DNA of 39,045 nucleotides from a virus. The stretch lies in IMG/VR virus record IMGVR_UViG_3300027842_000001, positions 1-39,045 of that record; one strand, given 5' to 3'. Of this stretch, positions 9,965 through 35,350 are shown piece after piece. Position 1 is the first letter of the stretch. Every line of letters begins with the position of its first letter. A program made the position numbers and the translations under genes. The notes under the pieces were generated by a model. That model did not search any database, was not told the origin of the DNA, and saw nothing but the letters and a program-made list of their open reading frames with translations.

Positions 9965-10759
9965 TCAGTGCACCACCAGCTCGCCGCGGAGGATCGCTTG
10001 TTGTTGCTCGCGCATCGCCGCCAGCACGCCGTCGTACTTGTCGCTGTCGGGCACCGACATGGTGAGGCGTCCGGCACGTCCGGACGTCCGGACGGTGGCA
10101 GTCACGGGCGCCGCCTCCGCCGCGGGCGACGGAAACTGGCGAGTTAGGAACTTGACGACGGCGCCGAGATTCGACGTCGCACCCTCGCCGGTGACACTGG
10201 CCATAAGCGCCCGCATCGGCCCGGGCAAGAGATTTTTCGCGGTGAGCAACTCGCGCACCGCGGGCTCCGTCCACGGATCGACACATCGGGCGGTCGCTGC
10301 TGCTGCTGCTGCTGCTGCTGCTGCTGCTGCGCCGCCTCGCGCGTGAGTCGCTCCAGCAACAGCAGCAAGAGACACCCCCTGGTAGTTCTCGTCGTACTCC
10401 GGGGGGGGACCGGACTGCACGTCGCGCGCGAGGGGGGGGGTGCCGGTCGCGGCCGGTCGGCGTCCGGTCGCGTCCGGTCGCAGCGACCGGTCGCGCCGCC
10501 GCTCGCGATTCCGACGCGACCGCTCAATGTCTTGCTGGCGATACCGTCGCAACTCGACGAGCTCGGCCTCGAGCTCGCTTTGAATCGCTATTAGCTCCGC
10601 GACACGCGCCCGCAGCGCCTCGAGCTCGCGGGTGTCCGGCACAGGTGTCCGGGTGTCCGGCGCCGGACTGCCGGACACTTGCCGGACGCGCCGAGTGGTC
10701 CATTCCCGCGGGTTGCGCTGGCGCCAGCGCGCCCGTCGGTCGAGCTGCTCGTCGGTCAT
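9965..10759 (-). CDS. Hypothetical protein; candidate replication initiator by position, with low-complexity centre
   Basis: Track ORF immediately upstream of the loader. Its middle third is encoded by DNA repeats (poly-Ala, PPP, PDTRTPVPDTR). Confidence 0.65.
   Translation of the reverse strand: MTDEQLDRRARWRQRNPREWTTRRVRQVSGSPAPDTRTPVPDTRELEALRARVAELIAIQSELEAELVELRRYRQQDIERSRRNRERRRDRSLRPDATGRRPAATGTPPLARDVQSGPPPEYDENYQGVSLAAVAGATHARGGAAAAAAAAAAAATARCVDPWTEPAVRELLTAKNLLPGPMRALMASVTGEGATSNLGAVVKFLTRQFPSPAAEAAPVTATVRTSGRAGRLTMSVPDSDKYDGVLAAMREQQQAILRGELVVH
10296..10330. repeat. Perfect trinucleotide microsatellite (GCT)11, read as poly-Ala on the minus strand
   Basis: Read directly from the sequence. 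Confidence 0.95.
10579..10595 (+). repeat. AT-rich 17-mer TTTGAATCGCTATTAGC
   Basis: Read directly; inside a minus-strand gene. Confidence 0.85.
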
Positions 10760-12189
10760 ACCTGCACCCCCTCGAGGCGAGCGAGCGCCGCCGCGGCGCG
10801 GCGCTCCGCGTCATGCACGTAGGTTTGCGACTGGTCGGCCCCGTAGAAACGACGCCCGAGCTCGATCGCACTCTCGGCGCTGGTGCCGCTGCCGACGAAC
10901 GGATTGACCACCAGGTCGCCGGGCCACGTGTAGAGCTCGACCAGGTTGTCGGGCACGCCCCGCGGCCACGGGCACGGGTGCCGCGAACGGTCGACGTTGT
11001 TCGGGATAAACCAGGCGTTGCGCGTCAGCGCTTTGAACCGCTCACCGTCGATCGACTCGCTATTGCCGTATCGACTGTGCTGGCGCTGGTGGCTCGACTT
11101 GGAGGCGACAAAGATCGGCTCCGCCACCGCGCGAGCAACAGGATTCGCGGGCGAGCCATACGTGCCCCACGCCGTCGACGTGGTGATGGTGTTGGCCGGG
11201 TCGAGTTTGTTTGATTGGCTATTAGCGTCCGCTTCGCCGCTGGTCTTTATCCACGTGAAGCGTTCCCGCGGCAAAAAGCCGATGCGCGACCAGGTGGTCC
11301 ATATGAGACGGTCGATCATCACCGCCCACCCGTCGCCGCCCATCCCGGCGTGCTGGCGTTTGCCGATCCCCTCGAGGCGATAGGGGCGGTGGTGTCGCGC
11401 GCCGTCGCCGTCGCCGCGGCGCCGATCGCCGGCATCGGAGCGCAGCACGTTTGCCAGGTTCACCGCGAAACGGCCGCCTGGCATCAGCACGCGGTAGACC
11501 TCGCGGAAGTGGGGCACGATCAGCTCGTGCCAGTACTCGCGCCAGCTCAGACAGTCGGCCGTCGGATCGTCGTCGTAGGCGACGCCCGCGTTGTAGGGCG
11601 GCGATTCGAGCACCAGCGCCGGGTGTGGACAGGTGGCGTCGTCGCACGGCGCCCCGTGGCGCCGCTCCAGGTGGCCGATGCCATCCTCGAATACCAGCGT
11701 GCGGCAGTCGCGGACCTCGATGCGGCACTCCGCGGGCAGGCCGCCGATCCCGCCTATGTCCGGCACGATTGCCGGACGCCGCGGCGTGCCGGACCGCTGG
11801 AGCTCGCGAATAAGCTCGCGCAGCTCGCGCACGCTCAGGTTGCGCGCCGCCGCCAGGTCGGCCATGTGGCGCCGATCGGCCGCGCCGAGGCGTGCCAGCT
11901 CGACCAGGTGCGACGTGCCGAGCGTTTGGGTCGAGAAACCGTCCAGATCGTCGGCCACCGTCGCCGCGGCCAGCGCGTTATAGACCGAACGCCGCGAGAG
12001 CTCGGGAAAGCGCTCGGCCAGATACGCGCCGAAACTGGCGTACCCCGCCTCGCGATAGACCTCGAGATCTCGAATTTCGACCAGCGCCCGCCCGACGCTC
12101 AAAAAGGCATCCTGACCCGCGCGCACCACCGCCTCGAGCTCGTCGAGGCGCGACGGCGGAGAAACTACAGCTAGTGCCCGCATCACCAC
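10756..12189 (-). CDS. DNA methyltransferase (N4-C/N6-A, beta-class motif order) with N-terminal DNA-binding-like extension
   Basis: LVLESPPYNAG (motif IV, SPPY) precedes NPFVGSGTSAESA (motif I, FxGxG). ATGA overlap with the downstream gene. Start is GTG 12189/12186 or ATG 12183. Confidence 0.9.
   Translation of the reverse strand: MVMRALAVVSPPSRLDELEAVVRAGQDAFLSVGRALVEIRDLEVYREAGYASFGAYLAERFPELSRRSVYNALAAATVADDLDGFSTQTLGTSHLVELARLGAADRRHMADLAAARNLSVRELRELIRELQRSGTPRRPAIVPDIGGIGGLPAECRIEVRDCRTLVFEDGIGHLERRHGAPCDDATCPHPALVLESPPYNAGVAYDDDPTADCLSWREYWHELIVPHFREVYRVLMPGGRFAVNLANVLRSDAGDRRRGDGDGARHHRPYRLEGIGKRQHAGMGGDGWAVMIDRLIWTTWSRIGFLPRERFTWIKTSGEADANSQSNKLDPANTITTSTAWGTYGSPANPVARAVAEPIFVASKSSHQRQHSRYGNSESIDGERFKALTRNAWFIPNNVDRSRHPCPWPRGVPDNLVELYTWPGDLVVNPFVGSGTSAESAIELGRRFYGADQSQTYVHDAERRAAAALARLEGVQV
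11221..11237 (+). repeat. AT-rich 17-mer TTTGATTGGCTATTAGC
   Basis: Read directly; inside the methyltransferase gene. Confidence 0.85.
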
Positions 12190-12332
12190 CTTGCGATCAA
12201 GTGAACGACCGCCGCCAGCACCACACCGCCAGCGAAAAATACGGCCAGGACCAGCGCCGCCGGCGGGTGCCAGCGGCGATCGACGAATATCCGACGGCCC
12301 GATGCCAGATACGCGGCCTCCTGTTTGCGCAT
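12183..12332 (-). CDS. Small membrane protein (49 aa, below the track cutoff)
   Basis: Hand translation: MRKQEAAYLASGRRIFVDRRWHPPAALVLAVFFAGGVVLAAVVHLIARW. ATG directly follows the upstream TAG; its TGA overlaps ATG 12183. Confidence 0.45.
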   Translation of the reverse strand: MRKQEAAYLASGRRIFVDRRWHPPAALVLAVFFAGGVVLAAVVHLIARW

Positions 12333-12551
12333 CTACTCGGCCGCCTCGTTTGATTGGCTAATAGCCGCCTCGAGCGACGGCTGGAATTGGAGCGCGGGTT
12401 GCAGCGCGCCGCGGTGCTGGACGGTGGCCACGCCGCGCCGAGCTCGGCCGCGGTGTCGGTGACAGCCGCAGCAGATCCCATCGGGCGAGGCACCCTTGCA
12501 GCGGCAGCTCGCGCCACAGATACGGCACACGATCGCGCGGCCAGTGCTCAT
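12333..12551 (-). CDS. Cys-rich mini-protein (72 aa)
   Basis: ATG 12551 overlaps the upstream TGA; CRICGASCRCKG...CCGCH. Confidence 0.55.
   Translation of the reverse strand: MSTGRAIVCRICGASCRCKGASPDGICCGCHRHRGRARRGVATVQHRGALQPALQFQPSLEAAISQSNEAAE
12349..12365 (+). repeat. AT-rich 17-mer TTTGATTGGCTAATAGC
   Basis: Read directly; at the 3-prime end of gene 12333-12551. Confidence 0.85.
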
Positions 12552-34289: not shown

Positions 34290-34292
34290 CCG

Positions 34293-35330
34293 ATGCCTGA
34301 GCGCTACTGGCTGACGTTCACGACGCGCCACCGCCACGGTCGGCCGACGCAAGAGCCGGTGTACTACCAGCGCGAGGGCGATCGCTGGCGGCTGTACTTC
34401 GGCAAGAGCGGGCGGCGCCGCGCCGTCGGCACCGAATCGGACGCCGCGGTGCGCTGGCAGGTCGACCTCGCCAAATCGGAGGGGCGCTTTGTACGGCACG
34501 AGCCCGACCAGGGCCGCATGTTCAACCCGCTAGTGCGCGGCTACTCCCGCGGGGCGATCGCCGCCAACATTCGGCGCGAGATCCACGCCGGCCGCGACCA
34601 GGACCAGGCCGTCGCGATCGCGCTGGCCACCGCCCGCCGCGCCTACCGCTCACGCCACCCGCGCGGCCGACTCCCCGCTCAGCTTCGGAGGAATCCGCCC
34701 ATGCACAACCCGCTTTATGGCGCCGAGGCCGCAAAGGTGATGCGCCGAATGGACCAGGCGCAGCGCGAGCTCGACCTCGCCTCACGCGAAGCCCGCGGGT
34801 CAGACGATCCCGAGGTACGGCACTACGCGCGCAAACGACGGGACCGGCTCATACGCGAGCTGGCCCGCTTGAGTCGCCGCCTGCATTGGGAGAACCCCGC
34901 GCGACGTCGCAACCCGGCGGAGATCGCCAAGCTACAGGCCGCCATGCTGCGCGAGGAAGCCCGCTACGACCGCACAGCGGACCTCTACCGCTACGACGAC
35001 CGCACGAGCGCCAGGGTGCGCGTGATGAAGGCGGCCGGCCAGCGCGATCGCGCGCAGAAAGCCGTTTACGACGCAATGCGCCGAGGCGCCAACCCCCGCC
35101 CGACCCGCGGCCCGCTCGACCGCCTCGAGGCCTACAGCGTGCGCTCGATGCGGCGCGCCGCTCGCGGAATCAGCGAGGTTCCCGAGAGGCATCGCGGCAT
35201 CTCCATGCGGGCGCTGGCGCGTCGGCGTCGACGACGCAACCCCAACCGTGGCGAGTGGATAGACCTCCTGGTGCCGCTGGCGTTCCTGGTGCTGCTGATT
35301 CGCGGCCGAACGATTCAAGTCGGCGCCTGA
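34293..35330 (+). CDS. Arg-rich RRNP-motif protein with C-terminal TM
   Basis: LRRNP, ARRRNP, RRRRRRNP; C-terminal WIDLLVPLAFLVLLI. Confidence 0.7.
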   Translation: MPERYWLTFTTRHRHGRPTQEPVYYQREGDRWRLYFGKSGRRRAVGTESDAAVRWQVDLAKSEGRFVRHEPDQGRMFNPLVRGYSRGAIAANIRREIHAGRDQDQAVAIALATARRAYRSRHPRGRLPAQLRRNPPMHNPLYGAEAAKVMRRMDQAQRELDLASREARGSDDPEVRHYARKRRDRLIRELARLSRRLHWENPARRRNPAEIAKLQAAMLREEARYDRTADLYRYDDRTSARVRVMKAAGQRDRAQKAVYDAMRRGANPRPTRGPLDRLEAYSVRSMRRAARGISEVPERHRGISMRALARRRRRRNPNRGEWIDLLVPLAFLVLLIRGRTIQVGA

Positions 35331-35333
35331 CTC

Positions 35334-35350
35334 GCTAATAGCTATTCAAA
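35334..35350 (-). repeat. AT-rich 17-mer (reverse complement TTTGAATAGCTATTAGC)
   Basis: Read directly; intergenic, just upstream of the dyad and the serine recombinase. Confidence 0.85.

Follow-up and report, generated by a model that had tools for sequence, protein, structure and literature searches.

The stretch of viral DNA analysed here, called the window, comprises positions 1 to 39,045 of the IMG/VR record IMGVR_UViG_3300027842_000001, and the element under study is an AT-rich 17-mer, TTTGAWTNGCTAWTAGC, scattered through its coding and non-coding DNA. The first 127 bases of the window are the same as the last 127 (1-127 = 38919-39045), which gives a unit of 38,918 bp. Two further contigs, of 39,038 and 39,059 bp, hold the same genome with other start points, and pieces of it occur as well. 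The terminal identity and the recovery with different start points therefore define the window as a complete circular or circularly permuted element from soil metagenomes. Five independent soil or metagenome datasets (JGI 3300005542, ENA ERZ27279682, SRR5579864, SRR24677618 and GCA_037024815.1) hold the genome at 99.9-100% identity, and their assemblies are collinear. The GC content is ∼70%. Leftward genes extend from ∼3 to 17.2 kb and include a small tyrosine recombinase, a DnaC-like helicase loader, an N6/N4 DNA methyltransferase, an NlpC/P60 peptidase and many small Cys-rich proteins. Rightward genes fill the region between 17.75 and 36.9 kb, the last of them coding for a large serine integrase.

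The 17-mer pattern has five exact matches in the window, at 10579-10595, 11210-11226, 12349-12365 and 28787-28803 on the plus strand and at 35334-35350 on the minus strand. Two degenerate copies, both on the minus strand, begin at 16199 (three mismatches) and 16701 (four mismatches). A preliminary description of this DNA had listed the same five strong and two weaker copies, and the count is borne out with one correction: the copy placed there at 11221 starts at 11210, with its core at 11218. By weight matrix both degenerate copies score 25-26 bits, compared with at most 13 bits for the best unrelated sequence of the window. None of 100 dinucleotide-preserving shuffles contains a match to the pattern. 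When AT-rich 17-mers were grouped de novo at up to two mismatches and the largest family was counted, the real sequence yields a family of five, while the largest family in the shuffles has one member in 94 cases and two in the remaining 6. The proposal that similar AT-rich 17-mers would recur by chance was thus put to a shuffling test and failed, and both tests rule out chance or base composition as the cause of the repeats.

The three plus-strand copies of the leftward block lie in or next to minus-strand genes. The first, TTTGAATCGCTATTAGC (10579-10595, +), is inside and antisense to a 264-aa gene (9965-10759, minus) directly upstream of the DnaC-like loader gene, and the gene reads LIAIQS through it. 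The second, TTTGATTGGCTATTAGC (11210-11226, +), is inside and antisense to the methyltransferase gene (10756-12183, minus), where it encodes ANSQSN. A DnaA-box-like sequence, TTATCCAC, occurs 37 nt downstream of this copy (11264-11271) and may be a chance occurrence. The third, TTTGATTGGCTAATAGC (12349-12365, +), is 16 nt upstream of the ATG (12332) of a 49-aa gene, the first gene of the methyltransferase-replication operon. By public gene calls it falls in a 215-bp gap; alternatively, it belongs to the 3' end of an uncalled 72-aa Cys-rich open reading frame (ORF; 12333-12551, −). Because the public calls omit the ORF at 12349, only the copies at 10579 and 11210 are securely intragenic. The uncalled 72-aa ORF (MSTGRAIVCRICGASCRCKG...) is tightly coupled on both sides, its ATG overlapping the upstream stop (TATGA) and its TAG abutting the next ATG; it is absent from the relative L108 described below and is one of at least four small Cys-rich proteins of the early region.

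The remaining copies are found at gene starts or between genes. The degenerate copy TTTGAATAGCTCATATG (16199-16215, −) ends in the start codon of a 96-aa gene and is part of an imperfect 20-nt inverted repeat at 16183-16227. The second degenerate copy (16701-16717, −) is included in an imperfect 25-bp dyad, CGTGAAACCATATTAGTGTTTCAAA (16693-16717), which is intergenic between an HNH-like gene and a 69-aa gene and follows a conserved CGTTGGCGCG box by 5 nt. The strong copy TTTGAATGGCTATTAGC (28787-28803, +) covers the 8 nt between two genes together with the ATG (28792) of the second, a conserved 77-aa gene that it overlaps in the sense direction. The fifth strong copy (35334-35350, −) forms, together with a mirror copy with three mismatches (35326-35342, +), the partial 25-bp dyad CCTGACTCGCTAATAGCTATTCAAA (35326-35350), an intergenic element that precedes the serine integrase ATG by 66 nt, with a candidate attP inverted repeat 20 nt away. 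The overlaps with start codons that had been noted earlier are present, since ATG 28792 is inside the motif and the ATG ending at 16201 is formed by the last three bases of the weak copy; so is the copy described as lying just upstream of the serine recombinase dyad, which is the copy at 35334, 20 nt from a 16-nt inverted repeat spanning the integrase start. Five of the seven copies lie at least partly in the 10.1% of the genome left outside called genes (P ∼4e-4 under uniform placement), a part of the genome in which AT-rich words are likelier in any case.

The inverted repeat near the integrase consists of the 16-nt arms CTGGTTACCGTCATAT and ATATGACAGTAACCAG (35371-35386 and 35415-35430) with 28 nt between them, and its right arm covers the integrase start codon (35417). 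The element at 35371-35430 is a candidate attP. If so, integration would part the integrase gene from its upstream region, the 17-mer dyad included. On the 3' side of the integrase gene, a terminator-like hairpin (TCGCGTTTGAAACGCGA followed by TTGTGTTG, 36994-37010) is present, with a copy of an 18-bp palindrome discussed below directly after it. The stem of this hairpin, TTTGAAAC, is the sole weak match to the 17-mer weight matrix outside the family.

The word is composed of two parts, TTTGAWT and GCTAWTAGC, and the 9-bp palindromic core is never present without the TTTGAWT part. Fourteen positions are invariant across the five strong copies, four of which have no second arm, and the flanks are unconserved beyond sharp edges except for a G that precedes the motif in four of the five. 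The constant pairing of core and left part and the sharp edges are therefore as expected of a protein footprint. The copies are spread from 10.6 to 35.3 kb, and the spacings within the cluster of three are 631 and 1139 bp, with no tandem array. The three intergenic copies form part of longer, imperfect dyads centred on the core, with the layouts TTTGAATAGCTA-T-TAGCGAGTCAGG at 35326-35350, TTTGAAACACTA-A-TATGGTTTCACG at 16693-16717 and a shifted one at 16183-16227; the others consist of one arm and the core. The centres of the dyads read TAATAT on the early-gene strand and, for that reason, may overlap a −10 element. A half-parS-like sequence, GTTTCACGTG (16689-16698), coincides with the second arm of the 16701 dyad and may be due to chance.

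The early/late control region that harbors the 16701 dyad also contains a composite repeat, GGGAGATCC-N25-41-CCGTTGGCGCG, on one strand, with two copies in the window (16644-16687 and 17438-17492, +) and three in L108 (4731-4780, 4913-4971 and 5205-5255). On the opposite strand it occurs directly before the ATG of the first leftward gene. The 17-mer dyad follows one copy of the composite repeat by 4-5 nt in both genomes, and in the window the HNH-like gene is inserted between the two copies. The composite repeat may be a leader RNA or a promoter-region element.

Conservation of the word at the level of DNA rather than protein, a central claim of the preliminary description, is upheld: the coding copies are read in two different frames and rely on rare codons, with a product of relative codon frequencies of 2-5e-5. 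The frames given there were LIAIQS in the 264-aa gene, ANSQSN in the methyltransferase and AISQSN in a third gene; all three readings are found, and the last is in an ORF (12333-12662) that public annotation does not call. In an alignment with the nearest homologues, ANSQSN lies within a methyltransferase loop that is missing in most family members and is specific to this lineage. The closest homologue, P0188 (61% identity), has a loop of the same length that reads DDVDDT, without the word there. The equal length and the different residues show that the word arose in a permissive loop through substitutions and did not enter as an 18-bp insertion. A small mobile insertion, or an 18-bp in-frame insertion, is ruled out by the loop length in P0188 and by the unrelated flanks of the copies.

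Two relatives carry the word. L108 is the first 19.5 kb, about half, of the 39,176-bp JGI contig Ga0668526_000211 (JGI 3300078413); it is collinear with 12-31 kb of the window at 67-84% nucleotide identity over aligned segments, mostly 70-77%. On the start codon of a 73-aa homologue of the 77-aa gene it has TTTGAATGACTATTAGC, in which 16 of 17 bases are kept while the adjoining intergenic bases differ. In its control region, 4 nt after the conserved CGTTGGCGCG box and thus in the place of the window's 16701 dyad, it has the near-perfect dyad GTTGATTGGCTAATATCCAATCAGG. Between the two genomes the arms of the dyad have changed together (TGAAAC/GTTTCA versus TGATTGG/CCAATCA) around an unchanged ATATTAG centre. 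The second relative, L319, is a 2-kb ENA contig that encodes P0188. It has two copies of the word in an 850-bp part of the same operon: TTTGAATCGGTATTAGG precedes the methyltransferase ATG by 20 nt, and ATTGATTCCGTATTAGC is intragenic. Both have the same gene-relative orientation as the three copies of the window's cluster, and both have G, not C, at position 10. The intragenic copy is in another variable loop, ∼55 codons upstream of the loop used in the window, which means that the methyltransferase site was re-created rather than inherited as protein sequence. A need for a site somewhere in the operon, and not at a fixed codon, would be expected to give this pattern. The co-variation of the arms, the variant base shared within a genome and the re-created intragenic site are together as would be expected for a lineage-specific binding protein that co-evolves with its sites.

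Across the two genomes, six copies are antisense to the local genes (10579, 11210, 12349 and 35334 in the window; 510 and 1337 in L319). The sense copies are the one at 28787, with its L108 homologue, and the one at 16199; the counts of each orientation are too small for significance. More distant relatives, namely SRR28264341_32102 (rel2), L110, L111 and L320, have no copy of the word. A methyltransferase profile search identified five distant loci in IMG/VR (40-43% identity), all without the motif, and no relatives in metagenome contigs. The exact motif has 101 single matches in IMG/VR, ∼the chance number, all on contigs of at most 49% GC and none at a GC content comparable to that of the window. 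Literature searches for the words returned only primers or nothing.

The lineage itself is sparsely represented. No nucleotide match to GenBank phages was obtained by megablast with 21 kb of the window, and in scans of called and candidate ORF products against Pfam (∼57 products) and PHROGs (20 products) the rightward, presumably structural, genes (17.75-35.3 kb) had no match, including none to terminase, portal, capsid or tail families. A 313-aa capsid-like protein (20316-21257) has homologues only among uncharacterised metagenomic proteins, and as a query it retrieved no relatives in IMG/VR, JGI metagenome contigs or GTDB genomes. The lineage is apparently absent from these three collections; it is uncharacterised and may constitute a new virus group. 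There are two weak pointers to a host, a 46% identical capsid-like protein in a Sphingomonadaceae metagenome-assembled genome (MAG) and homologues of the recombinase in Chloroflexota MAGs.

The sites are non-random, conserved at the DNA level, enriched in non-coding DNA, kept or re-created in relatives and not RNA structures. As to the last, the folds of the scattered copies are no more stable than those of shuffled sequences (z +0.6 to +1.1), and the window has no Rfam match and no tRNA, which rules out an RNA element, hairpin or terminator; the only strong hairpin is the L108 dyad (−16.8 kcal/mol), and a good palindromic operator would be expected to form one just as well. A CcrM-type GANTC site is likewise ruled out, as only one copy of the word contains GANTC. 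The consensus sequences of IHF, sigma-54, DnaA, LexA and CtrA misfit the invariant positions on inspection. A conserved host DNA-bending protein, one of the options in the preliminary description, is disfavoured by the lineage-specific variants of the word.

With moderate confidence, the 17-mers are interpreted as operator or roadblock sites of a virus-encoded DNA-binding protein, most likely an immunity or early-gene regulator. Binding by a regulator had been among the options raised earlier, and it is the best supported of them by virtue of the partial dyads, the co-varying arms and the variant base shared by the L319 copies; that a protein binds, the identity of this protein and the repression of transcription by its binding are inferred. 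The intergenic partial dyads, at 16693-16717 in the early leftward control region and at 35326-35350 upstream of the integrase and the candidate attP, would act as classical operators. The single, asymmetric and co-oriented copies at 12349, 11210 and 10579 would serve as auxiliary or roadblock sites that silence transcription through the methyltransferase-replication operon, and the intragenic sites would have been written into permissive parts of proteins by synonymous or loop-recoding changes. A candidate for the binding protein is the 96-aa product of the gene at 15911-16201 (−), which is ribbon-helix-helix-like by sequence pattern and whose start codon is overlapped by a degenerate copy of the motif. 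Further candidates are a 56-aa HTH-like protein (14190-14360), a 332-aa protein (14494-15492), the 264-aa protein (9965-10759) and the N-terminal domain of the methyltransferase.

Several observations weigh against this interpretation. The 96-aa protein has no family match, and its assignment as ribbon-helix-helix comes from the pattern and a monomer model of low confidence. The structure predicted for the 332-aa protein was also of low confidence, and sequence searches of the PDB returned nothing useful. No repressor family was detected in the Pfam and PHROGs scans, where the only hit of this kind is a weak HTH_3 match on a 56-aa protein. L108 has no copies at the positions equivalent to 12349 and 16199, and the relatives were read in part (half of L108 and 2 kb of L319). 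The orientation is not uniform, the copies at 28787 and 16199 being opposite relative to genes. The total of 5 + 2 sites is far below that of P1 or L5, and 14 invariant bases hold more information than a regulator needs to find seven sites. The retention of the 28787 copy is partly accounted for by the conserved N-terminal coding sequence, and the overlap of the sites with promoters is inferred. If the operator interpretation is correct, the re-creation of the methyltransferase site in different loops of two lineages would mean that a requirement for DNA binding overrides protein sequence. The word would also provide an entry point to the system, a bait for the regulator and a marker of immunity groups among relatives, which it could delimit because it varies between lineages. 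The practical value is modest until the binding protein is found.

Among other explanations, sites of replication or segregation, similar to iterons or centromeres, appear unlikely. The three-copy cluster would then mark an origin region, and the 264-aa protein would be the candidate binder. The arrangement of the cluster suits such a role: three co-oriented copies occur within 1.8 kb in or next to genes just upstream of the DnaC-like loader, L319 has two more there, and the sites are AT-rich in a 70% GC genome. Lambdoid origins are found inside the initiator gene, and iterons are asymmetric words of 17-22 bp, near-identical within a replicon, of which inverted partial copies function as autoregulatory operators. 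The spacings of 631 and 1139 bp are far from tandem, helically phased iteron arrays, however, and the copies that overlap the start codons of the 77-aa and ribbon-helix-helix-like genes or precede the integrase have no obvious part in replication. Protein family scans detected no Rep, ParA or ParB family, and the GC skew has no switch near the cluster.

A further explanation involves a second scattered word, TGTGCAGACGTCTGCACA, an 18-bp palindrome whose full form, (T)TGTGCAGACGTCTGCACA(A), is perfect over 18-20 bp and whose 14-bp core is TGCAGACGTCTGCA. The window has seven exact copies of the core (15947, 20086, 24680, 29297, 37019, 37820 and 38449), and L108 has copies at 4113, 8090, 17627, 18077 and 18194 (three exact and two with one mismatch), several of them at homologous positions. 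In the called genes of the window the palindrome always reads VQTSA(Q/H/R) in frame; the sites include the tail of the ribbon-helix-helix-like protein, a 277-aa protein, the end of a hydrolase signal peptide and positions after arginine runs in proteins of 310 and 347 aa. Arginine runs followed by NP (RRRRNP, RRNP) occur as several repeats in the proteins at 17752-18327, 29296-30228 and 34293-35330, are conserved in L108 and could be DNA-condensing or processing-site motifs. Outside the lineage, the palindrome is unexpectedly widespread, with hundreds of contigs from unrelated phages carrying it: the exact 18-mer was matched in more than 117 stretches of IMG/VR and 88 of GTDB genomes, against ∼1-20 expected by chance. 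Many of these stretches are from Oxalobacteraceae and others from Ruminococcus, Bacteroidota and Acidobacteria, with unrelated flanks and GC contents of 30-70%. A test of the longest-ORF frame on 195 copies gave only a mild excess of the VQTSAQ frame (80/56/46). The palindrome was not found in the searchable literature and is at least as puzzling as the 17-mer. None of 205 palindrome-bearing loci outside the lineage has the 17-mer or proteins in common with the window, and on those loci a link between the two words beyond this lineage is rejected. That the 17-mer is not a transcription operator at all, and instead forms with the palindrome a pair of ‘address words’ kept even at the cost of recoding proteins for a joint genome-level function, is a speculative and rather improbable proposal. 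Such a function could be condensation or packaging by arginine-rich virion proteins, control of replication or segregation, or the evasion or decoying of host defence.

It is very improbable that the copies are crossover sites of the 216-aa tyrosine recombinase (4850-5500, −), at which segments of the genome would be inverted. In that scheme TTTGAWTNG would be a 9-bp arm and CTAWTAG a 7-bp spacer, followed by a non-conserved second arm. The dyad does read 9-7-9, the usual core geometry of tyrosine recombinases; copies occur in both orientations, and their near-perfect conservation and sharp edges suit a recombinase site. The sfx sites of the R64 shufflon are asymmetric as well. The protein consists of the catalytic domain alone and coexists with the large serine integrase; FimB and FimE, recombinases of ∼200 aa, are invertases. 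Its family comprises proteins of 200-230 aa with 56-67% identity in 205 metagenome clusters (E ≤1e-10), some of them on chromosomal contigs of up to 795 kb. At the assembly level, however, the five assemblies are collinear and at least 99.9% identical, with no inversion or deletion end-point at a copy, and the window and L108 are collinear across four sites. Inversion or deletion between copies would disrupt the methyltransferase, replication and structural operons; the palindromic spacer would provide no directionality, and no copy is near the recombinase gene.

The chances are slightly slimmer that the sites are promoter or activator elements through which a modified host polymerase would carry out a transcription programme specific to the virus. 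The preliminary description had observed that the word does not fit a standard −35/−10 spacing, and indeed there is no consensus match at any copy. A sigma-70-type promoter is rejected on the grounds that the halves are 1 nt apart, compared with two hexamers 16-18 nt apart, and that the relation to start codons is inconsistent. Genome-wide, sigma-70-type consensus promoters are no more frequent than in shuffles, which implies that the virus's own promoters must look different. Three copies overlap or abut start codons (28792, 16201 and 16703), one precedes the first gene of an operon by 16 nt and another the integrase gene by 66 nt, and the TAATAT of the dyad centres on the early-gene strand resembles a −10 element. 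The phage-specific promoter element suggested earlier is nonetheless a poor fit. Neither position nor orientation is consistent: some copies contain the ATG, at position 6 or 15 of the motif, others are 16-66 nt from an ATG on the opposite strand, and others are in the middle of a gene. The 1-nt gap is incompatible with two-hexamer recognition, and TAWTAG in the strong copies lacks the T with which a −10 element ends. None of the products scanned against Pfam matched an RNA polymerase or sigma-factor family, and the move of the L319 intragenic copy to another loop is unexpected for an element tied to a downstream start.

Least probable of all are targets of a virus-encoded nuclease that nicks DNA at specific sites, in the manner of T5 or phiKMV-like phages, or signals for packaging or processing: nick sites also appear as long, asymmetric, near-invariant words in coding and non-coding DNA, and the window has weak HNH-like (16734-17249, with the 16701 dyad directly downstream) and GIY-YIG-like (4428-4853) matches, but these are below Pfam thresholds, the copies are on both strands while described nick sites are strand-specific, the control-region dyads and their co-varying arms would be unexpected, and no fixed assembly ends occur at the copies.

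The operator interpretation has its closest parallels in two systems of dispersed asymmetric sites. Phage P1 has 22 dispersed asymmetric 17-bp operators for its C1 repressor (PMC8546580). The window resembles it in having asymmetric, AT-rich words of 17 bp in near-identical copies that are distributed over the genome and are not gathered at a single switch. Among the P1 operators, some are ‘bivalent’, in that two overlapping inverted copies form an incomplete palindrome, and the partial dyads at 35326-35350 and 16693-16717 resemble these. The words themselves show a slight likeness (ATTG-CT-CTAATA in P1, ATTG-G-CTAATA in the window) that may well be chance. The differences are that P1 has 22 sites compared with 5 + 2, that some copies in the window are well inside genes, and that the virus is unrelated, with 70% GC, a circular genome of 38.9 kb, a serine integrase and no recognisable structural genes of tailed phages. 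No C1-family repressor was recognised among the scanned products, where a very divergent protein is possible.

The second parallel is provided by the stoperators of cluster A mycobacteriophages. L5-type repressors recognise more than 20 asymmetric 13-mers whose orientation tracks transcription; the L5 repressor is a monomer whose two DNA-binding domains read a two-part site, and the sites work in only one orientation relative to transcription (PMC9283540). Similarly, the window has asymmetric sites throughout transcription units, not at promoters only, the word has two parts, and all five operon-internal copies in the window and L319 share one orientation. In contrast to the L5 sites, which are numerous and located in short intergenic gaps, those of the window are 17-mers and few, with two deep in genes and two reversed; no homologue of gp71 was found in the window.

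Other systems are less similar. The phiC31 repressor binds conserved inverted repeats (CIRs), highly conserved 17-bp sites in many places of a GC-rich temperate phage; the CIRs are symmetric and intergenic, unlike the window's word, which is asymmetric with only a 9-bp palindromic core. The centromere sites of the plasmid-prophage N15 and the iterons of plasmids are short, near-identical protein-binding words, those of N15 symmetric and iterons tandem and phased. They share with the window the scattering of near-identical words, some in or beside replication and control genes, and differ in their symmetry or tandem phasing and in their partition or Rep proteins, none of which is recognised in the window. 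In the narrow sense the window does not belong to the P1 or L5 families because no homologous repressor was found in it, but the sites may have a like function. The kind of system is known; the word, the lineage and the putative protein are new. If the operator interpretation is correct, this virus would represent a third independent case among temperate viruses, after P1 and the cluster A mycobacteriophages, of silencing via many dispersed asymmetric sites rather than one operator cluster.

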